Positions 2,593-41,013 of a DNA stretch of 64,000 nt are shown piece after piece. The DNA is taken from contig CAVSUD010000014.1 of NCBI GenBank assembly GCA_963731055.1, positions 33,575 through 97,574 on the forward strand. The letters are read 5' to 3'. Position 1 is the stretch's first letter. Each line of letters opens with the position of its first letter. The position numbers and the translations under genes are program-made. Below the pieces are notes generated by a model. The model had not been told where the DNA came from and made no database searches. It saw only the letters and a list, made by a program, of their open reading frames with translations. Source of the stretch: an uncultured Actinomycetes bacterium. Its GTDB lineage: Bacteria > Actinomycetota > Acidimicrobiia > Acidimicrobiales > CADCTF01.

Positions 2593-2676
<84 letters not shown>

Positions 2677-11872: not shown

Positions 11873-11948
11873 GGGGACGTAGCTCAGTTGGCAGAGCGCT
11901 GCCTTTGCAAGGCAGATGTCGAGGGTTCGATTCCCTTCGTCTCCACCA
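11873..11948 (+). tRNA. alaT: tRNA-Ala (anticodon TGC), CCA encoded
   Basis: GGGGACGTAGCTCAGTTGGCAGAGCGCTGCCTTTGCAAGGCAGATGTCGAGGGTTCGATTCCCTTCGTCTCCACCA. It has the G3:U70 identity pair, anticodon loop TTTGCAA and T-loop TTCGATT. Confidence 0.92.
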
Positions 11949-12559
11949 CACCCGATCCTTCGACGCCGGCCTTGCCCCCGTCGACCCGCCGGCGCCAGTC
12001 GTCGTAGCGGGCGGGATCGGTCCAGGCCCCGGTGGCGCGGTCGAAGGCGAGCGCCTCGGGCACCATCCACTCGGCCCGGCCGCGGCGGGCGGACGGTCGA
12101 CGACGCCGTGGCGATGTCGGCCGGGACGTCGAGGGTCGTGGCGCCGAGAGGGAGGTCGACGTGCTCGTGGCCCGGGCGGGGCGCGACGGCGATGGCCGGG
12201 AGGGCGGCCACGGCCGCATCCCGCGCGACGGTCGACCCACGGTAGAAGGTCGGGTCGAGGACCTGGGCCCACTTGTCCGCGCCCAGGACGAGGACGTCGT
12301 ACCCCCGAGCCACGTCCACCAGGAGCTGGTGATCGGTGACGGCGAGCCCGAGCCACCCGCCGGCGGCAGCGACGACGTCGGCCAGCACGGCGAGGCGGTC
12401 GTCGAGGGCCGGGCGGACGACGTGCTCCTTGGCCAGCGCCACGCGCGACACGACGAGGTCGAGGCGCTCGAGGCCGCAACGCTCGAGCGCGGCCGCGGCG
12501 ATGGCGAGGTGGGCGACCGTCGGCGGGTCGAACGAGCCGGGGTAGCAGCCGATCGTCAT
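11884..12559 (-). pseudogene. cytidylyltransferase-fold NMN/NaMN adenylyltransferase-like protein, one frame break near 12085
   Basis: ORF 11855..12559 begins 'MTIGCYPGSFDPPTVAHL' (GxFxPxHxxH-type motif) and runs to 'ATASSTVR' (ISST-like motif). Plausible sequence then continues in the frame of ORF 11884..12240 ('RGRAEWMVPEALAFDRATGAWTDPARYDDW'). That frame only stops at 11884, antisense to tRNA-Ala. Confidence 0.55.
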
Positions 12560-19612: not shown

Positions 19613-20799
<1,187 letters not shown>

Positions 20800-20829
20800 G
20801 TCCCGAGCCCCCGGCTAGCGGTTCGACGT

Positions 20830-20856
20830 CATCTCCCCCCATCATGGGGGGAGATG
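20830..20856 (+). promoter_or_regulatory. perfect 11-bp hairpin covering the SD and ATG of the downstream small ORF (also a possible thiolase terminator stem)
   Basis: CATCTCCCCCC (20830-20840), loop ATCAT, GGGGGGAGATG (20846-20856). The right arm contains GGGGGGAG plus the ATG at 20854. Confidence 0.5.
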
Positions 20857-21111
20857 CCCGTCCTCTTGAAGCTGGTCATCGGCCTCGGCGTCGCCTACGT
20901 CATCTTGAAGCTGGGCTTCTGGATGCTGCGAGGCCTGGCCAACCCGTTGCCCCCGCCCCCGCCGTCGGGTGAGCTGCGCCGGGTGAACCTGCGCTACCGC
21001 TGCGACGTGTGCGGGGTCGAGCTCAGGATGACGGCCGCGCCGGACGAGGATCCGCCCCCACCCCGCCACTGCACCGAGGAGATGGAGCTCGTCGCCCCCG
21101 TGATGGAGTAG
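20854..21111 (+). CDS. small membrane protein with C-terminal CCHC zinc-knuckle-like motif
   Basis: 85-aa ORF with high GC3. It has TM 'LLKLVIGLGVAYVILKLGFWML', a Pro tract, then 'RYRCDVCGVELRM...PPRHCTEEM'. Confidence 0.55.
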   Translation: MPVLLKLVIGLGVAYVILKLGFWMLRGLANPLPPPPPSGELRRVNLRYRCDVCGVELRMTAAPDEDPPPPRHCTEEMELVAPVME

Positions 21112-21120
21112 CCCCCGCCG

Positions 21121-21151
21121 TCGTCCACAGGCTGTGGACAGAGTTGGGGAA
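21121..21151. promoter_or_regulatory. 17-bp palindrome made of two head-to-head DnaA-box-like elements (composite-motif copy A)
   Basis: tcGTCCACAGgCTGTGGACagagttGGGGAa. GTCCACAG (21123-21130) and CTGTGGAC (21132-21139) are perfect reverse complements. Each contains the GTCCACA core of the actinobacterial DnaA box TTGTCCACA. Confidence 0.4.
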
Positions 21152-21183
21152 GATCACACCGGTGTAACTCGGCCGGCGGCGCT

Positions 21184-22176
21184 TCAGTTGCCGGCGCCGG
21201 CGAAGACCGCCGCCCGCACGCCTCGATCGGCGAGCTCGCGCAGGAAGGCCAGCGGCTCGGGCACGAGCTCGGCGAGGCCGGCGCTGCCGGCCCGGGCCAG
21301 GCGGCCCGAGGTCACCCAGGAGGTGGCCACGGCGGCGACGGCGCCGGCGGCGAGGCCGGGACGGTCGATGGCGCCGAGGACGCGCGCGTCGGTGGTGGAG
21401 CCGCGGCGGCCCCGCACCTCGACCCGCACGGCGCCGAGGGCCCCCTCGGCGTGGGGCCGGCGGAGCATGGGGAGCCGGGAGCTGATCCGATCGCGGCGGG
21501 AGGCACTGACCCGGGCCGTGATCCGGCCGACGCCGGCGAAGGCACCGCGGAGCAACAGGGCGTCGGGAAGCGCGGCCCGATAGCAGTCGAGGCCGCCGAC
21601 GGGATCGGGAAACCACGACAGCTCGCGACCCGACCCGGCCGCCCGCCGCACCCACGCACCGTCGCGCCAGTCGAGGGCTTCCCCGGCCAGGGCGGCGTGG
21701 TGCTGGCGGGCACACGCCGGGCCGCCCGTGCCCGCCTTGGCGATGTGGATCTCGTCGATGGAGGAGAAGTCCGCCGCCGCGTGCCGGGCCAGCAGGCACG
21801 TGAGCCCGGGCGAGAAGCCGGCGCCGATCACGACGTGCCGGCCCCGTTCCCGCGCCTCGGCATCGAGGGCGAGCAACCCGTTCGTCTCCTCGACGTCGTC
21901 GGTGGTCGACACCACGTCGACCCCCCGTTCGAGCGCCCACTCCGCATGCTGGCGGTGAGACCCCGCCGGCAGCGCCAGCACCAGCACCGAAGCGCCGGCG
22001 AGGAGGTCGGGACGCCACCGCTCGGCCCGGGCCGGACGCCCCAACGAGGCCGCGACCGTGGTGGCCCGGGCGTGGTCGCGATCAGTGACGATCAGGTCGG
22101 TCAGGCCGTCGAGGCCGTGGAGCTGCCGGGCGGCACGGGCTCCGACGGCTCCGGCCCCGGCGACGACGAGCCGCAC
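21184..22176 (-). CDS. saccharopine dehydrogenase-like NAD(P)-binding oxidoreductase
   Basis: Intact 330-aa ORF. It has the Rossmann N-terminus 'MRLVVAGAGAVGARAARQL' and 'VVIGAGFSPGLTCLLARH', typical of the Sacchrp_dh family. Confidence 0.7.
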   Translation of the reverse strand: MRLVVAGAGAVGARAARQLHGLDGLTDLIVTDRDHARATTVAASLGRPARAERWRPDLLAGASVLVLALPAGSHRQHAEWALERGVDVVSTTDDVEETNGLLALDAEARERGRHVVIGAGFSPGLTCLLARHAAADFSSIDEIHIAKAGTGGPACARQHHAALAGEALDWRDGAWVRRAAGSGRELSWFPDPVGGLDCYRAALPDALLLRGAFAGVGRITARVSASRRDRISSRLPMLRRPHAEGALGAVRVEVRGRRGSTTDARVLGAIDRPGLAAGAVAAVATSWVTSGRLARAGSAGLAELVPEPLAFLRELADRGVRAAVFAGAGN

Positions 22177-23109: not shown

Positions 23110-23183
23110 TGGGGCTAGATGGAATCGAACCATCGACCTCAGCATTATCAGTGCTGCGCTCTAACCAACTGAGCTATAGCCCC
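23110..23183 (-). tRNA. ileT: tRNA-Ile (anticodon GAT)
   Basis: The reverse complement is GGGGCTATAGCTCAGTTGGTTAGAGCGCAGCACTGATAATGCTGAGGTCGATGGTTCGATTCCATCTAGCCCCA. The anticodon loop is CTGATAA. It starts 7 nt after the DUF3566 stop. Confidence 0.92.
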
Positions 23184-30513: not shown

Positions 30514-31635
30514 TCAGTTGGTGAGGCGCACGGGCATGAGGAGGTACAGGTAGTCGCTGCCCTCGGTGCTCCGCACGGTGGCCGGCTTCATGGGATCGAG
30601 GGTCTCGAGGACGATCTCGTCGCCCCCGACGGCTTCCAGGCCGTCGATCAAGAAGGAGGGGTTGAAGCCCATCACGAGCTCGGTTCCCTCGTACTTCGCG
30701 TCCAGGTCCTCGGTGGCCTGGCCCAGCTCCTGGGTGATGACCGTGCACTCGACGCCGTCGGCCCGCAGCGACACCCGCACCGGCGTGATCGCATCCTTGA
30801 CCAGCAGGCGCACCCGGCGGACGGCGTCGAGCAGTGCCTCGCGGTTGACGACCAGCCGGTTCGGATAGCTGTCGGGGATGAGCTTCTGGTACGGCGGGAA
30901 CTCGCCCTCGATCAGGCGGGTGGTGAGCCGCACCGTGCCGACCTCGAACGACGCGTCGCGCTCCCCCAGCCGCAGGGTCACCGACTCGGCGCCGTTGAGG
31001 AGCCGCTGGAGCTCGGACAGGGCGCGCCCGGGCACCAGGACCTGCTGGTTCTCCCGCAGCACGGTCGTTCCCGGCAGGTCACGAACGGCCAGTCGGTAGC
31101 GGTCGGTGGCCACCAGACGCAGCCCCGCGCCTTCGGCGGTCATGAGCACGCCGCTGATGACGGGGAGGCTGTCGTCGGAGCTGGCGGCCCGGACGACCTG
31201 GCGCAGGGCCTCGGCCAGCTCGGCCGCCTGGAGCGTCACCGCATCGCCGCCGGCCGCCGTGTCACCCTCGGCCGGGAACGGCAAGCGGGGGAACTCGTCG
31301 GCCGGAAGGATCCGCACGGCGAACTGCGACCGACCCGAGGTGACCCGCACCTCCTCGTCGCCCGACTCGAACGTCACCGCGCCCGGCTCGAGGGCCCGCA
31401 CGATCTCGGCGATCAGGCGGGCGGGCAGGACCGAGACGCCGTCCTCGATGCCGTTGATGGCCGTCTCGACCTGGATGGTCAGATCGAGATCGCTCCCGGC
31501 CAGCCGGAGCTGATCTCCCACCACCTCCAGGCGGACGCCGGACAGGACGGGGAGCGCGCCGCCACGCGTGGCGACGGCTCGTCCCGCAGTGCTCAGGGCT
31601 TCGACGAGGGTGTCACGCTCGCAACGGAACTTCAC
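30514..31635 (-). CDS. dnaN: DNA polymerase III beta sliding clamp
   Basis: Intact 373-aa ORF with a GTG start and a purine-rich SD. 'MKFRCERDTLVEALSTAGRAV' and the overall three-domain length fit DnaN. Confidence 0.95.
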   Translation of the reverse strand: MKFRCERDTLVEALSTAGRAVATRGGALPVLSGVRLEVVGDQLRLAGSDLDLTIQVETAINGIEDGVSVLPARLIAEIVRALEPGAVTFESGDEEVRVTSGRSQFAVRILPADEFPRLPFPAEGDTAAGGDAVTLQAAELAEALRQVVRAASSDDSLPVISGVLMTAEGAGLRLVATDRYRLAVRDLPGTTVLRENQQVLVPGRALSELQRLLNGAESVTLRLGERDASFEVGTVRLTTRLIEGEFPPYQKLIPDSYPNRLVVNREALLDAVRRVRLLVKDAITPVRVSLRADGVECTVITQELGQATEDLDAKYEGTELVMGFNPSFLIDGLEAVGGDEIVLETLDPMKPATVRSTEGSDYLYLLMPVRLTN

Positions 31636-31881
31636 CGTGCCTCTTCTCTTCTCTTAGATATAGAAAACTGCAGTAGCAGTAGTAGGTGCTGTGGATTGTG
31701 GACAAGCCACGATCCGGGCAGGTCAGTGCGGGTGCAACGGTGTGCGGCGTCGTCCCCAGGTTTCCACAGGGGTGGGACAGCTTCGGGGAGCCCCTCCGGA
31801 CAACCCTCGCCCGTCCACCGAAATCACAAGGTCCCGACACACCGATCCCCACACCGTCGGGGTCACGCTGGGGTTCGTCAC
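31636..31881. other. dnaA-dnaN intergenic origin-like region: AT-rich tract plus DnaA boxes (oriC candidate, part 1)
   Basis: The AT-rich tract 31641-31686 ('ctcttctcttctcttagatatagaaaactgcagtagcagtagtag') stands out in an otherwise GC-rich sequence. TGTGGACAA at 31697-31705 is a perfect TTGTCCACA. TGTGGATTG lies at 31690-31698 and GTTTCCACA at 31760-31768. Composite-motif copy C spans 31752-31790. Confidence 0.55.
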
Positions 31882-33285
31882 TCAGACCCCCTTCTTGATG
31901 CGGTGCATCAGCTCGGTGACCTGGTCGTAGATCTGCCGGCGCTCCTTCATCTGGCCGCTGATCTTCTCCACGGCGTGGATCACGGTGGTGTGGTCACGAC
32001 CGCCGAACTCGCGGGCGATGGCCGGGTAGCTGAAGTCGGTGAGCTCCCGGAACACGTACATGCCGATCTGTCGGGCCATCACCAGGGGTCGGCGACGGTT
32101 CGGGCCGCAGAGGTCCTCCACGCTGAACCCGAAGGTCTCGGCCGTCGTGTCCAAGATGAGCTTCGGGGTGATGGGTCGGGGCTCGTCGGCGCTGACGCTG
32201 TCGGCCAGGACCTTCTCGGCCAGGGCCCGGGTCGGGGGCTCGCGGTTGAGGCTGGCGAAGGCCGAGACCCGAACGAGGGCTCCCTCGAGCTCCCGGATGT
32301 TGTTCTTGATGTGGATGGCGATGAACTCGAGCACGTCGTCGGGCAGGTGGGCGCTCTCGGTCTCCGCCTTCTTGCGGAGGATGGCGAGGCGCGTCTCGAG
32401 GTCGGGCGGCTGGACGTCGGTGATGAGGCCGGAGAGGAAGCGGCTGCGAAGGCGGTCCTCCAGGGTGACCAGGGACTTCGCGTGCCGGTCGGAGGTGATC
32501 ACGATCTGACCGCCGGCGCCGTAGATGGTGTTGAAGGTGTGGAAGAACTCCTCCTGGGTGCCCTCTTTGTTCTCGAGGAACTGGATGTCGTCGACCAGGA
32601 GGACGTCGCACTCCCGGTAACGGCGCTTGAAGGCGGAGGTGGAGTTCGTCCGGATGGCGTCGATGAACTCGTTCATGAACGTCTCGGTCGAGATGTACCG
32701 GATCGTCTTGTTGAGGTAGTGCTCTCGCACATAGTGCCCGATGGCGTGGAGGAGGTGGGTTTTCCCCAGGCCGGCCTCCCCGTGGATGAACAGCGGGTTG
32801 TAGCTCTTGGCCGGCGTCTCGGCCACCGACAGCGCGGCCGCGTGGGCGAAGCGGTTGGAGGCCCCGATGACGAAGGTCTCGAAGGTGTACTTCGGGTTGA
32901 TCGGGAGGGGGGCGGTGCGACCGTCGGGGGGCGGCTTCTGGGGCGTCAGGCCCGACCCCGAACGGCTCGCGAGGGTTGTACTGGGCGCATCGTTCCTGGT
33001 CAGCGACTCGGCGCCGGCGGCATCGTCATCGCCGGCCTCGGTGCGCACCTCGAGCTCGACGGCCACGCCCCCACCGGCCAGACCGGCCACGGCGTCCTGC
33101 ACGAGGGCGAGGTACCGGCCCTCGAGGCGCTCCTTGACCAACGGGTTCGGGACGGCCAGTACGAGGCGATCGCTGCTGTAGGAGACGGGTCGAATGCCCT
33201 GGAAGAACGTCTTCCAGGTCGATTCCGACACCTGGTCCGAGAGTGCTTCTGCACAAGCCATCCACAGCCGTTCGGCGTCCGTCAC
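31882..33285 (-). CDS. dnaA: chromosomal replication initiator DnaA
   Basis: ORF 31882..33333 (483 aa). It has Walker A '[15 protein letters not shown]', 'LLVDDIQFL', sensor motifs and the C-terminal HTH 'DHTTVIHA'. I prefer the GTG at 33285 ('[15 protein letters not shown]'), because DnaA boxes occupy 33314-33345. The longest start is 33333. Confidence 0.95.
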
Positions 33286-33581
33286 CTGCGCTTCAGCCTC
33301 CCCGGCACGTCGATGGTCCACAGCACCGTCCACACCTGTGGAAATGCTCCGGGGACCGGGGGAAGGGCGGTCGGCGGGAACGGTCCAGGCGGCATCGGCG
33401 AAGGAGGCAAGGTAGCACCGGCCCTGTGGACGGTTCTACGGGCCGGATGGAAAAACTGTCCTCGCGCCCGGTACCGTGGACCGAGGCGCAGCGCCGTTCG
33501 GCTGCCGCGCCCGTTGACGTTTTTCCGTCGTGCCGGCCCTCCCTCGCCCGCACGTCGGCCCGCCGGTCCACAGGAGGACTC
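33286..33581. other. rpmH-dnaA intergenic DnaA-box cluster (oriC candidate, part 2, or dnaA autoregulatory region)
   Basis: GTCCACA-core boxes: TGGTCCACA 33314-33322, CCGTCCACA 33326-33334, TGTGGAAAT 33337-33345, TGTGGACGG 33425-33433 and CGGTCCACA 33564-33572. Short A/T runs occur at ~33446-33460 and ~33515-33530. Confidence 0.55.
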
Positions 33582-33716
33582 GTGAAGCGACCGTTCCAGC
33601 CCAACACCCGCAAGCGCGCCAAGCGCCATGGGTTCCGTCATCGGATGGCCACCAAGGCCGGACACGCGGTGCTGAAGTCCCGTCGCGACAAGGGTCGCCA
33701 GAAGCTCTCGGCCTGA
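33582..33716 (+). CDS. rpmH: 50S ribosomal protein L34
   Basis: GTG at 33582, preceded by AGGAGGA. '(M)[43 protein letters not shown]'. Confidence 0.92.
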
Positions 33717-37020: not shown

Positions 37021-37036
37021 TGTTTCACGTGGCACG
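37021..37036. promoter_or_regulatory. degenerate parS-like site
   Basis: TGTTTCACGTGGCACG against the consensus TGTTNCACGTGAAACA. The left half is perfect and the right half has 3 mismatches. It lies 10 nt upstream of a perfect site. Confidence 0.5.
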
Positions 37037-37046
37037 GTGGGCCCGG

Positions 37047-37062
37047 TGTTTCACGTGAAACA
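37047..37062. promoter_or_regulatory. parS: parS centromere-like site (perfect consensus)
   Basis: TGTTTCACGTGAAACA matches the 16-bp parS palindrome TGTTNCACGTGAAACA exactly. Confidence 0.9.
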
Positions 37063-37367: not shown

Positions 37368-37383
37368 TGTTCCACGTGAAACA
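37368..37383. promoter_or_regulatory. parS: parS centromere-like site (perfect consensus)
   Basis: TGTTCCACGTGAAACA matches TGTTNCACGTGAAACA. Confidence 0.9.
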
Positions 37384-37391
37384 CCGGGCAG

Positions 37392-38051
37392 GTGCTTGCG
37401 TTCGTTCGCCCCAGGCTGCAGGATGCAGCCGTGACGCTGCCGGACGGAGATGTTGCCGCTCGAGGACGAAGCATCTTCGAGCGACTGCGTGCGGAGCAGG
37501 ACGCCGCCCAGCCCCCGGAGGCTCCGGGTGTCAATGCGTCGGCGGTGTTGCAGTGGGTGGACCTTCCGTTGCTCGAGCGGTCTGCGGTCGTCGCCGGCCC
37601 CCTCGACCCCTCGCCTTCCGCCACCCCTACGATGGAGGCCAGGCTGCAGGACCGTGTGACCGAGGAGGTCGCGGACCCCGAGCCCGACGTCTCCGCCGAG
37701 CAAGTGAGTACTCCGCCGGTCGTCGAGACGGACCCGCCTCAGGACGTCGACCAGCCGACATCTCGTTCTCCGACCACCACGGACACCGCCACCGCGGAAG
37801 CGGCCACAGCCCATCGGCCCCCGACCGGACGTCGATCAGGACCCCCCGACGTCGCCCCCACCGGCTCTGACGTCGCCCCCGCCGCCGCTGTCCCCGATGC
37901 CGCCGCCGACGTCGACGAGCCCGGCCCCGCTGAAGGCGTACTGCGAGCCCGACCCCGCCCCCGAAGTCGTACGTGGCGACACCGCCGGTCATGCCCGATC
38001 TTCCCGCGCTGGGGGCACCGGTCTCCGCCCCGGCGGCTGCCACCTCGCTGA
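37392..38051 (+). CDS. Pro/Asp/Ala-rich low-complexity ORF; possibly part of a long frame-broken N-terminal extension of ParA
   Basis: 219-aa ORF in the same frame as parA. Acidic/proline-rich text continues across frames ('..AADVDEPGPAEGV', '..APLKAYCEPDPAPEVV', '[28 protein letters not shown]'). GC3 is less extreme than in neighbouring genes and the last ~40 aa are Arg-rich. Confidence 0.3.
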   Translation: MLAFVRPRLQDAAVTLPDGDVAARGRSIFERLRAEQDAAQPPEAPGVNASAVLQWVDLPLLERSAVVAGPLDPSPSATPTMEARLQDRVTEEVADPEPDVSAEQVSTPPVVETDPPQDVDQPTSRSPTTTDTATAEAATAHRPPTGRRSGPPDVAPTGSDVAPAAAVPDAAADVDEPGPAEGVLRARPRPRSRTWRHRRSCPIFPRWGHRSPPRRLPPR

Positions 38052-38072
38052 CCCCCCCCGGCCGATGCGCCG

Positions 38073-38920
38073 GTGGTGTCGAGTGGCACGCGGCCGGCCC
38101 AAGACGTGGCGCCCGAGCCGGCGACGTTCGCACGGCCACTCCCCCGGATCCTCGCCATCGCCAACCAGAAGGGCGGCGTCGGGAAGACGACGACGACGGT
38201 CAACCTCGGCGCCTGCCTCGCCGAGCTGGGCTACCGGGTGCTCGTCGTCGACCTCGATCCGCAGGGCAACGCGACCACGGGCCTCGGGCATCAACATCCG
38301 GAACCTCGAGCACTCGATCTACGACGTGATCCTGCACGACGTGCCGCTGGAGGACTGCGTCGAGCCCACCGCCGTGCGAAACCTGTTCGTCGCGCCGGCC
38401 ACCATCGACCTGGCCGGCGCCGAGATCGAGCTCGTCCCGGCCTTCAGTCGGGAGTTGCGCCTCCGGCGAGCCATCGAGGAGGTACGCGACGACTACGACT
38501 TCGTGCTCATCGACTGTCCGCCGTCGCTCGGCCTGCTCACCGTCAACGGGCTGGCCGCCGCCACCGAGGTCCTCGTCCCGATCCAGTGCGAGTACTACGC
38601 CCTCGAGGGTCTGGGCCAGCTGCTGCGCAACGTCAACCTCGTCCAGACGAACCTGAACCCGACGCTCGAGGTCAGCGCGATCGTCCTGACGCATGTACGA
38701 CGCCCGGACCAAGCTGGCCGAGCAGGTGGCCGACGAGGTGCGCGACGCACTTCGGCGCCGAAGGTGTGCCGCAACGTCGTGCCCCGCACCGTCCGGCTCT
38801 CCGAGGCGCCGTCGTTCGGGCAGCCGATCATCGTGTTCGATCCGTCGTCCCGTGGGGCGCATCGCCTACCGGGAACTGGCCAAGGAGGTCAGCGGTGGCG
38901 CGCCGCAGCGGGCTGGGTAG
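38073..38920 (+). pseudogene. parA: chromosome partitioning ATPase ParA/Soj, frame interrupted at least 4 times
   Basis: '[48 protein letters not shown]' is in the frame of 38073. '[46 protein letters not shown]' is in the frame of 37897. '[16 protein letters not shown]' and '[10 protein letters not shown]' are in the frame of 38693. The first junction is an extra G in 'ctcGGGcatc' (~38285). Confidence 0.9.
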
Positions 38921-39981
38921 AGGGCTCGGGGCGCTGATCCCGACCGAGGCGTCGACCGACGACGACCGGCGACGTCGGCGCTGCTGGAGCTCCCCGTCGG
39001 CGCCATCAATGCCAACCGCTACCAGCCCCGTCGTCACTTCGACGAGGAGGCCCTGGCCTCGCTGACGGCCAGTCGTGCGCGAGCTCGGGGTGCTGCAGCC
39101 GATCCTGGTGCGTCCGGCCGAGGCGGATGGCAGCTACGAGCTGATCGCCGGCGAGCGCCGGTGGCGGGCCGCCAAGCGGGCCGGCCTCCAGACCATCCCG
39201 GCCATCGTGCGAGCCGTCGAGCGACGTCTCCAGCCTCGAGCAGGCGCTCGTGGAGAACCTGCACCGCCAGGACCTCAACGCGTTGGAGGAGGCGGCGGCG
39301 TACCAGCAGCTCATCGAGGACTTCCGCCTCACCCACGACGAGGTGGCGGCGCGGGTGGGCAAGAGCCGGTCAGCGGTGACGAACACCCTGCGGCTGTTCC
39401 AGCTGCCGCCCGGCGATCCAGCGCCTCGTGGCCGAGGCGCAGCTGTCGGCCGGCCACGCCCGCGCCCTGCTCGGAACACCCGACCGGGCGTTCCAGGAGG
39501 GCCTGGCCAAGCGGGCGGTCGCAGGAGGCGCTGTCGGTGCGCGACGTCGAGGACGCTGTCCGCCAGCGCAACGACCTGGCCGGCCAGCTCGGCGGCACGG
39601 GCACCGGCTCGGGCTCGCCGGCCCGTCCGCCGTCGGGCAAGGCCGCTCCGACCGCCCGGGCTGCTCGAGCTGGAGGACCTGCTGTCGGAGTACCTCGACA
39701 CCCGCGTGAAGGTGGCGATGGCGGCCAAGAAGGGCAGGCTCGTCATCGACTTCGCCGACCTCGAGGACCTCGAGCGCATCTACCGAGCCATGACCGAGCC
39801 TCCGTCGGGCGGCACCGGAGGGTCGCACCTCAGCCTGACGAGGGTGCAGGGCGGGTCGACGGTTCCGGACCGCCGATCCGAATCCTCGCAGGTCAGCCGG
39901 TGTGCCGCCGCGGCGCTGGGGCGTGGATCGAGGCTTCGACCTCACGCTCGACCTGAAGTGACGTCCCCAGGCTGTGGATAA
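38895..39981 (+). pseudogene. parB: chromosome partitioning protein ParB, frame interrupted about 6 times; 3' end uncertain
   Basis: GTG at 38895 ('(M)[15 protein letters not shown]'). The sequence then continues through:
- '[28 protein letters not shown]'
- '[36 protein letters not shown]'
- '[44 protein letters not shown]'
- '[14 protein letters not shown]'
- '[35 protein letters not shown]'
These are spread over three frames. Confidence 0.85.
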
Positions 39982-39990
39982 CTTGGGGAC
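39963..39990. promoter_or_regulatory. perfect TTATCCACA DnaA box inside a 7-bp dyad (composite-motif copy B)
   Basis: GTCCCCAggcTGTGGATAActtGGGGAC. TGTGGATAA (39973-39981) is the reverse complement of TTATCCACA. The flanks GTCCCCA (39963-39969) and TGGGGAC (39984-39990) are exact inverted repeats. Confidence 0.5.
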
Positions 39991-40002
39991 AGGGCCGGCG
40001 CC

Positions 40003-41013
40003 TCAGAGCCGGGGAGTGGGCTGTGCCCAGTGCTGCAGGGCCGTCGTCAGTGCCGCGGCGAGCTCGGCGGTGCGCTCGACCACGACCGTCGGCGCACCGA
40101 GCTCGCGACAGGACGGCCGGCATCCGCGTCTCGCGGAGCACGGGCAGCGCCATGCCCCGCACGCCGCCGTCCGTGGCGCCGGCACCACGCCGGGCAGGAC
40201 CGCTCGCACGAGCTCGGCCAGGCGGTGGCCCTCGGGGCCTCGCAGCCGGTGGGGGAGCGGTAGTACGACGACGAGCAACCACGGCCGCCGTCGGCGAGGC
40301 ACAGCCCGACGAAGGCGTCGGCCTCGATGGCGTTGGCCTGGGCCGCCTGGGTCGAACCATCCGGATGTTGCGACCACGACGGCCACCCCGCCGGCGGCGG
40401 AGATCGCGGCCGCGACGGCGTGGCGCCAGCGCGTCGAGCCCGCCGGACTCACCCACGGCGATGGCGCGTCCGGCCAGCGACGGGGGCGATGCCGGTGCCG
40501 TTCGCGTTCGCGCACGGCCGAGATGGACGCACGTCCCCCCGGGGTGCCCCGGTCGCCGCCCACGTCGCCGAGACGGGCGAGGGCGGCGAGGGTGGACGGC
40601 CCGCAGATCGAGTCGGTGATGAGCCCGCCGTTGCGCTGGAAGTCGGTCAGGGCCCGGTCGGTGCGAGGCCCGAAGATCCCGTCGACCCGACCGGCGTCGA
40701 ACCCGAGCAGACCGAGGCGGCGCTGGAGCTCGGCCACGTCGTCGCCCCGCTGCATGGGGGCCGTCAGATACAGCGGCCGGTCACCGAGCCGCCAACCCGC
40801 CTCGACCAGGGCGGCCCAGGTGTCGGGTCCCGCAGACGCCGTCGCGCGCGAAGGCCCCGTTGTTCCTGGAAGGCCCGGACGGCGGCATCGGTGCCGGCGC
40901 CGAACGAGCCGCCGTCATCGCGCACCGATCCCGTAGCCCAACGCGACGAGGCGGCGCTGGACGATCCCGCACCGCCTCGCCTGACCTGACCCGTCGCCGA
41001 GGGGAAGACCGCG
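40003..41013 (-). pseudogene. cwlM: CwlM-like protein (two PG_binding_1 repeats plus amidase_3-like C-domain), heavily frame-interrupted; start not identifiable
   Basis: ORF 40003..40755 carries 'MQRGDDVAELQRRLGLLGFDAGRVDGIFGPRTDRALTDFQRNGGL..CGPSTLAAL'. Upstream, in other frames, lie '[15 protein letters not shown]', '[25 protein letters not shown]' and '[22 protein letters not shown]'. The position after trxA matches mycobacterial cwlM. Confidence 0.65.

Follow-up and report, generated by a model that had tools for sequence, protein, structure and literature searches.

Acidimicrobiia are abundant in soil, water, and activated sludge, and are mostly uncultured. To our knowledge nothing is known about the control of replication initiation in this class, a subject that is poorly known outside Escherichia coli and Bacillus subtilis. 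We analyzed a stretch of 64,000 nucleotides (hereafter the window) of an uncultured bacterium of this class (contig CAVSUD010000014.1 of assembly GCA_963731055.1, positions 33,575 to 97,574), in which a composite motif containing a DnaA box recurs in intergenic regions around the replication origin (oriC). In sequence, this motif is a compact module of three 9-bp DnaA boxes, which are predicted binding sites. The window has a GC content of 71% and carries a classical origin neighborhood, with dnaA, dnaN, recF, gyrB, gyrA, and a DUF3566 gene on the minus strand and rpmH, yidC, rsmG, parA, and parB on the plus strand. The origin itself is framed by the following features:

30514-31635, minus strand: dnaN, with Pfam DNA_pol3_beta domains 1-3
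31640-31705, plus strand: oriC unwinding module, in the dnaA-dnaN spacer and adjoining the dnaN start
31882-33285, minus strand: dnaA, with Pfam Bac_DnaA, Bac_DnaA_C, and DnaA_N and a GTG start at 33283-33285
33582-33716, plus strand: rpmH

Three sites, named A, D, and B, share one layout, where box I is inverted and followed after 2-3 bp by box II and, after another 2-3 bp, by box III in the same direction as box II:

21121-21153, plus strand: site A, box I TCGTCCACA (21121-21129, inverted), spacer ggc, box II TGTGGACAG (21133-21141), spacer agt, box III TGGGGAAGA (21145-21153)
33314-33345, minus strand (the sense of dnaA): site D, box I ATTTCCACA (33337-33345), spacer gg, box II TGTGGACGG (33326-33334), spacer tgc, box III TGTGGACCA (33314-33322)
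39961-39992, plus strand: site B, box I ACGTCCCCA (39961-39969, inverted), spacer ggc, box II TGTGGATAA (39973-39981, perfect consensus), spacer ct, box III TGGGGACAG (39984-39992)

The CCACA end of box I and the TGTGG end of box II face each other across the 2-3 bp, box II is usually the closest to the consensus, and boxes II and III follow each other with a period of 11-12 bp, about one helical turn. A previous inspection of the DNA without database searches (the sequence-only reading) had described four sites made of a left arm CGTCCmCA, a DnaA box, and a right arm GGGGAv. All four strings are found where it had placed them. The left arm is an inverted predicted DnaA box, and the right arm, (T)GGGGAv, is a degenerate one in the direction of the central box.

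Since the pattern of the sequence-only reading was written after the sites had been seen, we scored the window with the generic DnaA-box consensus only. The triple-box score describes an inverted box, 2-3 bp, a box, 2-4 bp, and a box, each compared with TGTGGAYAA. Within the 64 kb, scores of at least 17.5 are confined to A (20.0), D (20.5), and B (20.0). The mean number of such matches in 100 Markov shuffles is 0.09, and none of them reaches 20. The post hoc pattern CGTCCMCA-N2-3-TGTGGANA-N3-6-GGGGA also matches A, D, and B, with 0 matches in 100 shuffles, and the 11-mer that A and B were said to share, CAGGCTGTGGA, has just two occurrences, one at each of these sites (0.02 expected). The 5 occurrences of TGTGGANA in the window all fall at sites A to D or in the oriC box pair, and there are only two perfect 9-mer boxes, one in the oriC unwinding module (31697-31705) and the other in site B (39973-39981). 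No further box with at most one mismatch was found within 200 nt of either A or B. We thus regard A, B, and D as real, non-random sites. We also considered that A and B might be copies of a longer repeat, and rejected this because their similarity ends at the motif.

The single architecture proposed for all four sites holds for A, B, and D, as indicated by the triple score, but not for the remaining one:

31750-31768, plus strand: site C, tandem same-direction boxes TCGTCCCCA (31750-31758) and GTTTCCACA (31760-31768), inside oriC

Site C is 45 nt to the right of the unwinding module, in the same spacer, its GGGGAg arm is 16 nt away, and the best triple score in this spacer is 15.5. Given this score and the tandem layout inside oriC, we rejected it as a fourth copy. 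The neighboring unwinding module comprises an AT-rich stretch (31640-31670), five NAG trios that resemble DnaA-trios (CAG TAG CAG TAG TAG, 31671-31685), a 4-bp GC gap (gtgc), and two abutting boxes, TGTGGAT and TGTGGACAA (31690-31705). Every component of the basal unwinding system, i.e., tandem DnaA boxes, a GC gap of ~4 bp, at least three NAN trios (3'-GAT-5'), and an AT-rich stretch (PMC8287927), is present at 31640-31705.

We compared the window with other genomes of the class using a DnaN-anchored scan of species-representative genomes, which places the window in Acidimicrobiia and in which the best matches are uncultured metagenome-assembled genomes with a DnaN identity of 84-89%. The resulting sample comprises 80 dnaN-centred Acidimicrobiia loci (1.39 Mb), and labels such as L001 and L084 designate these loci. 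The two abutting boxes of the unwinding module are kept beside dnaN in most relatives, and a motif, TAGgnnCTGTGGATTGTGGAnAA, recurs adjoining dnaN in most of the loci. The 80 loci contain 93 triplets scoring at least 19.5, of which 88 occur at three places: 60 at the 5' side of dnaA, 21 at the 3' side of parB, and 7 in the dnaA-dnaN spacer. Two of the 5 others (in L036 and L057) are also parB 3' sites, and the background outside these places is ~3 matches in roughly 1.3 Mb. The triplets of the dnaA-dnaN spacer include TGGGGA-type boxes in 6 of the 7 loci. A distant locus, L078, has a very strong triplet elsewhere than at these places, ~1 kb downstream of dnaN (12182-12213, ACTTCCACA-gt-TGTGGATAA-ctc-TGTGGACAA, score 22).

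The most frequent place is that of site D. Triplets just 5' of dnaA are found in 60 of the 80 loci, one in each, and 57 of the 60 point toward dnaA; their I-II gap is 2 bp in 51/60 and their II-III gap 3 bp in 57/60. In the window, the triplet ends ~30 nt 5' of the GTG of dnaA and ~12 nt before a GGGGAGG ribosome-binding site. It aligns with the closest relatives, L001 and L016, where the spacers change and the boxes persist. The part of the earlier description that fails here is the right arm: GGGGAC (33351-33356, plus strand) is conserved neither in L001 nor in L016, whereas a third box is conserved on the dnaA side (33314-33322), so that the real D triplet is 33314-33345 on the minus strand and GGGGAC probably lies outside the element. 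Judging from its location, site D is most likely the autoregulatory operator of dnaA, and it may also be the left arm of the origin. It is established for E. coli, B. subtilis, Streptomyces, and Mycobacterium that DnaA regulates its own gene through boxes at the dnaA promoter (PMC2533591, PMC8203912). Site D resembles these boxes by its place between the rpmH-dnaA spacer and the dnaA start and by its orientation, fixed in 57 of 60 cases; the likeness is confined to D, and no gene lies downstream of A or B for them to control. Immediately 5' of the D triplet there is a C-rich motif of 11 nt (CCTTCCCCCGG on the minus strand, 33357-33367), identical in L001 and L016, which may be a promoter or regulator element of dnaA.

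Sites A and B both lie in gaps between convergent genes, as had been noted from the sequence. Site A is between the stops at 21111 (plus strand) and 21184 (minus strand), and site B between the end of parB (plus strand) and the gene at 40003-40755 (minus strand). The genes that face them are:

20800-21111, plus strand: open reading frame (ORF) of 103 aa, GC content at third codon positions 0.89, stop 10 nt before A, convergent with the oxidoreductase gene, homolog at the same position in L084
21184-22176, minus strand: GFO_IDH_MocA-type oxidoreductase (Pfam), last gene of the same-direction block dnaA-dnaN-recF-gyrB-gyrA-DUF3566, with its 3' end facing A
40003-40755, minus strand: PG_binding_1 (cwlM-like) gene (Pfam), frameshifted, convergent with parB, with its 3' end facing B

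The place of site B is conserved. In 33 of 53 Acidimicrobiia loci, the parB 3' region is at or above the 99th percentile set by 660 control windows (a cut-off below 19.5). The ortholog of B in L001 reads ACGTCCCCA-tcc-TGTGGAAAA-cc-TGGGGGCGA, with the boxes kept and the spacers changed. The 21 triplets at the parB 3' side that score at least 19.5 belong to 20 loci, and their II-III gap is 3 bp in 20 of 21. The spacer in which they lie is invariably bordered on its other side by the 3' end of a convergent gene, which is cwlM-like or encodes a thioredoxin. Canonical boxes occupy the same three positions in the parB 3' spacers of L035 (TTGTCCACC-cc-TGTGGATAG-tgc-TGTGGACGA), L004 (GCTTCCACA-ggc-TGTGGAGAA-acc-TGTGGTCAG), L049 (TTATCCACC-cc-TATGGATAA-gcc-TGTGGATAA), and L032 (TTTTCCCCA-ggc-TGTGGTCAA-acc-TGTGGGTAG). 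Several relatives have a second conserved palindrome beside the triplet (L008, L015, L039, and L049 in the parB 3' spacer; L020, L033, L038, L017, and L024), which is GTGTGACAnnTGTCACAC in some and TCGAACAnnTGTTCGA in others. Neither these two nor the second palindrome GTGACANNTGTCAC of the relatives' parB 3' spacers is present in the window.

Site A has a counterpart in L084, which shares its neighbors (the oxidoreductase is 76% identical and the 103-aa ORF 74%). The triplet of L084, TCGTCCACA-ccc-TGGGGACAG-atc-TGGGGAGAG, directly follows the stop of the 103-aa ORF and has the same orientation as A. Between the two, the boxes are kept and both spacers have changed, and box II went from TGTGGACAG to TGGGGACAG, that is, from TGTGGA to TGGGGA. 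The intergenic spacer measures ~490 bp in L084 and 72 bp in the window. Box clusters with different layouts follow the oxidoreductase stop in L084, L085, L086, L088, and L142, and the more distant orthologous loci of A have no box clusters. The oxidoreductase gene is syntenic with gyrA and the DUF3566 gene in many Acidimicrobiia contigs, so that A marks the outer end of the dnaA...gyrA block, as B does for the rpmH...parB block. Two further observations concern this spacer. The string TGTAACTC (21163-21170), 10 nt after box III of A, is kept in L084 (~1290-1300) amid diverged sequence. Furthermore, directly downstream of the oxidoreductase stop, L084 (~896-940) and L085 (~1075-1110) have several CCCCA-type boxes in a row, all in one direction, TTCGTCCCCA-ggtc-ATCCCCA-aag-TTGTCCCCA, and this row is absent from the window; a literature search for the variant TTGTCCCCA returned unrelated primer sequences only.

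The geometry of the triplets also holds for pairs of boxes. In a census of strong box pairs over 1.88 Mb, in which every gap from 0 to 12 bp was allowed, we found:

head-to-head pairs (CCACA facing TGTGG): 41 at 2 bp, 11 at 3 bp, and no more than 2 at each of the other gaps
direct pairs: 56 at 3 bp, 10 at 1 bp, 10 at 2 bp, and 8 at 12 bp
tail-to-tail pairs: nearly absent

Such a restricted choice of gaps argues for contacts between protein protomers bound to adjacent boxes.

Taken together, A and B are DnaA-box-based sites outside oriC, non-random and conserved at orthologous positions, as expected of the DnaA-regulatory sites suggested by the sequence-only reading. By analogy with better studied systems, we propose, with a probability of roughly 0.65, that they are oriC-proximal modulators of initiation of the same kind as datA, the DnaA-box clusters (DBC) of B. 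subtilis, and D78 of Streptomyces. Both are intergenic and outside oriC, at 10.5 kb (A) and 8.3 kb (B) from the unwinding module, at the outer ends of two conserved diverging blocks that flank the origin, dnaA...gyrA-DUF3566-oxidoreductase and rpmH...parA-parB. Their location between 3' ends makes a promoter role unlikely. In the mechanism that we envisage, domain IV of DnaA would bind the strong central box II, and protein-protein contacts would recruit two protomers to the weaker flanks, one joining box I head-to-head and the other joining box III head-to-tail. Cooperative assembly of this kind agrees with the tight spacing. Sites A and B would then retain or remodel DnaA in the vicinity of the origin, and their own duplication would follow initiation within seconds.

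Sites of this type have been described before. Extra-origin DnaA clusters are negative regulators in E. coli, Streptomyces coelicolor, and B. subtilis (PMC3479198), DBC in the vicinity of oriC are described as frequent among Actinobacteria (PMC3245932), and the B. subtilis DBC gcp-ydiF lies between convergent 3' ends (PMC2533591). The sequence-only reading knew of no named element of this form; yet extra-origin clusters near oriC, including between convergent 3' ends, had already been reported in B. subtilis and Streptomyces (PMC2533591, PMC3245932, PMC3479198). A and B share with DBC, D78, and datA the status of extra-origin intergenic clusters near oriC, and with gcp-ydiF the location between convergent 3' ends. 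Like DBC and D78, they belong to Gram-positive organisms without SeqA and Hda, and negative regulation of initiation has been proposed for those. They differ in that the known clusters are described as larger arrays, whereas there are exactly three boxes with a fixed geometry here (for D78 the comparison is by description only), and in that the position at the parB 3' end is conserved across the whole class. Hence, A and B as extra-origin DnaA-box clusters and D as a dnaA operator would most likely be of kinds already known, and the conserved three-box geometry of Acidimicrobiia has, as far as we could find, no earlier description.

Several points weigh against this interpretation. Three boxes hold about three DnaA molecules, which makes a poor sink in comparison with datA or the B. 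subtilis DBC. Titration alone would therefore be a weak mechanism, and the sites may be better suited to catalysis or to a structural role. Site A appears, from the loci compared, to be conserved only within a narrower clade. The control windows with which the parB 3' regions were compared are mostly coding, so that this contrast is somewhat inflated. Enrichment near oriC was judged within +/-32 kb in the window and +/-10 kb in the relatives. Finally, the window has split reading frames in parB (38900-39981), parA (37897-38937), the cwlM-like gene (40003-40755), and a thiolase (19635-20799). Two of the split genes match relatives over their first 52-62 aa only (62 aa in the cwlM-like gene), and the splits look like indel errors of assembly rather than real pseudogenes. 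Given such errors, little weight should be given to 1-bp spacer differences inside the window, although L001 confirms that boxes II and III of site B are 2 bp apart.

A catalytic role brings to mind the DnaA-reactivating sequences (DARS) of E. coli, of which A and B could be functional counterparts that stimulate initiation. In that case, an ADP-DnaA trimer would assemble on boxes I to III of A and B, and the head-to-head contact between I and II would eject ADP, regenerating ATP-DnaA by the origin. The DARS cores (defined in PMC5742627, which reviews Fujimitsu 2009, and in PMC6868365) read as follows in E. coli K-12 (NC_000913):

DARS1: TTATCCACT-attcc-TGTGGATAA-cca-TGTGTATTA
DARS2: TTATCCCAG-ctttc-TGTGGATAA-cat-GGTGTAAGA

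They have the order and orientation of boxes seen at A, B, and D (I inverted, II and III direct), which contradicts the view that no named element has this form, and differ from them in the I-II gap. The likeness extends to three 9-bp boxes with I opposite to II and III, CCAC/GTGG ends facing each other, a consensus box II between degenerate boxes I and III (box II of site B is a perfect TGTGGATAA), and a II-III gap that is 3 bp in both DARS. In addition, A and B are two intergenic copies, one per replichore, as are DARS1 and DARS2, and three boxes would serve better for catalysis than as a sink.

The spacing argues otherwise. Boxes II and III are separated by 3 bp at A and D and by 2 bp at B, and the I-II gap is 2-3 bp everywhere in place of the 5 bp of both DARS, which sets the centers 11-12 bp apart rather than 14 bp. 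The combination of 5 bp between I and II with 3 bp between II and III was not found at A, B, or D, and only 2 of 56 strong head-to-head pairs are at 5 bp; we therefore do not claim membership in DARS. A 5-bp gap is also what the published head-to-head model was fitted to (PMC6868365). The presence of the same module at the 5' side of dnaA, where an operator role is expected, suggests that the geometry may be the generic cooperative binding unit of the clade. The DnaA of the window is 39% identical to that of E. coli, with Leu290, Phe239, and Lys243 identical, while Gln208, a residue of the head-to-head interface that is needed for DARS activity, aligns with Asn. Unlike DARS, the sites of Acidimicrobiia have no evident IHF or Fis region, and A and B are 7-12 kb from oriC and not at mid-replichore. 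We know of no ADP-DnaA cycle of the Hda type (regulatory inactivation of DnaA, RIDA) in Actinobacteria, and of no DARS reported outside proteobacteria. On balance, we regard a DARS function of A and B as unlikely. We hold it just as doubtful that they are the first DARS-type sequences outside proteobacteria, in which case the tighter I-II gap would correspond to a different head-to-head geometry.

A still less probable explanation is that A and B act on transcription between the convergent genes, as terminating hairpins or protein roadblocks. They are in short 3'-3' spacers, and candidate hairpins exist at A (GTCCACA-ggc-TGTGGAC, a perfect 7-bp stem with a 3-nt loop) and at B (GTCCCCA...TGGGGAC, a 7-9-bp stem). 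Yet the fold energies of A and B on both strands are no better than those of shuffles (z from -0.04 to -1.1), there is no T-run terminator-like site in 20900-21400, and no Rfam family matches the sites; we rejected an RNA element or terminator on these grounds. The comparison with relatives points the same way. In the L084 counterpart of A, the box persists although the stem has acquired a mismatch, and only the invariant CCACA/TGTGG core is complementary across species, which means that there is no compensatory change. Box III is conserved even if it is outside the hairpin of A. Finally, orientation relative to parB flips freely (11 triplets in one direction and 10 in the other), as expected of a DNA site and not of a transcript element. 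A roadblock made of bound DnaA would be compatible with the role in initiation that we favor.

The boxes could also be the operator of another dimeric origin-associated protein that reads GTCC(A/C)CA-N2-3-TG(T/G)GGAC or the outer dyad, with an incidental or competitive resemblance to DnaA boxes, and we consider this the least probable of all: boxes I and II of A and D form a near-perfect palindrome, and B-type sites use a non-random set of I-II spacers (recurrent acc, ggc, agc), but the half-site is identical to a box of the oriC unwinding module, a third, non-palindromic box is conserved at a fixed 3-bp gap, and the outer dyad is not conserved beyond the nearest relative. This dyad, GTCCCCA/TGGGGAC, had been taken in the sequence-only reading as a frame around a DnaA box. 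It does exist at B and in its closest relative, L001, and is specific to them; at the same positions other species hold other boxes, TTCCACA, TTGTCCAC, TGTGGAC, or TGTGGTC. It is a by-product of the same A-to-C variant occurring in boxes I and III. Since TGTGGA and TGGGGA swap at orthologous boxes, and canonical boxes replace the arms, the latter are variants of the DnaA box, and the idea of a separate dyad for another protein is not supported.

The window contains other elements of interest. Three parS sites lie just upstream of parA (37021-37062 and 37368-37383), for which shuffles give 0.36 matches; one of them (TGTTTCACGTGAAACA, 37047-37062) matches perfectly, and the remaining two deviate at 0-2 positions. 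There are also three tRNA genes, at 23110-23183 (minus strand), 11873-11945 (plus strand), and 2593-2676 (minus strand), the first of which is located between the DUF3566 gene and a DUF1622 gene, on the gyrA side of site A.

For Acidimicrobiia, the comparison provides a consensus of the DnaA box in the clade that includes the TGGGGA variant, strict rules of spacing (2-3 bp between head-to-head boxes and 3 bp between direct ones), and two conserved extra-origin sites, one at the 3' end of parB and the other where the gyrA block ends. Should the geometry reflect no more than cooperative binding, these sites would add a further example of oriC-proximal DnaA-box clusters. If a chemistry like that of DARS turned out to be true, the DNA-based recycling of the nucleotide state of DnaA would be much older and more widespread than thought.

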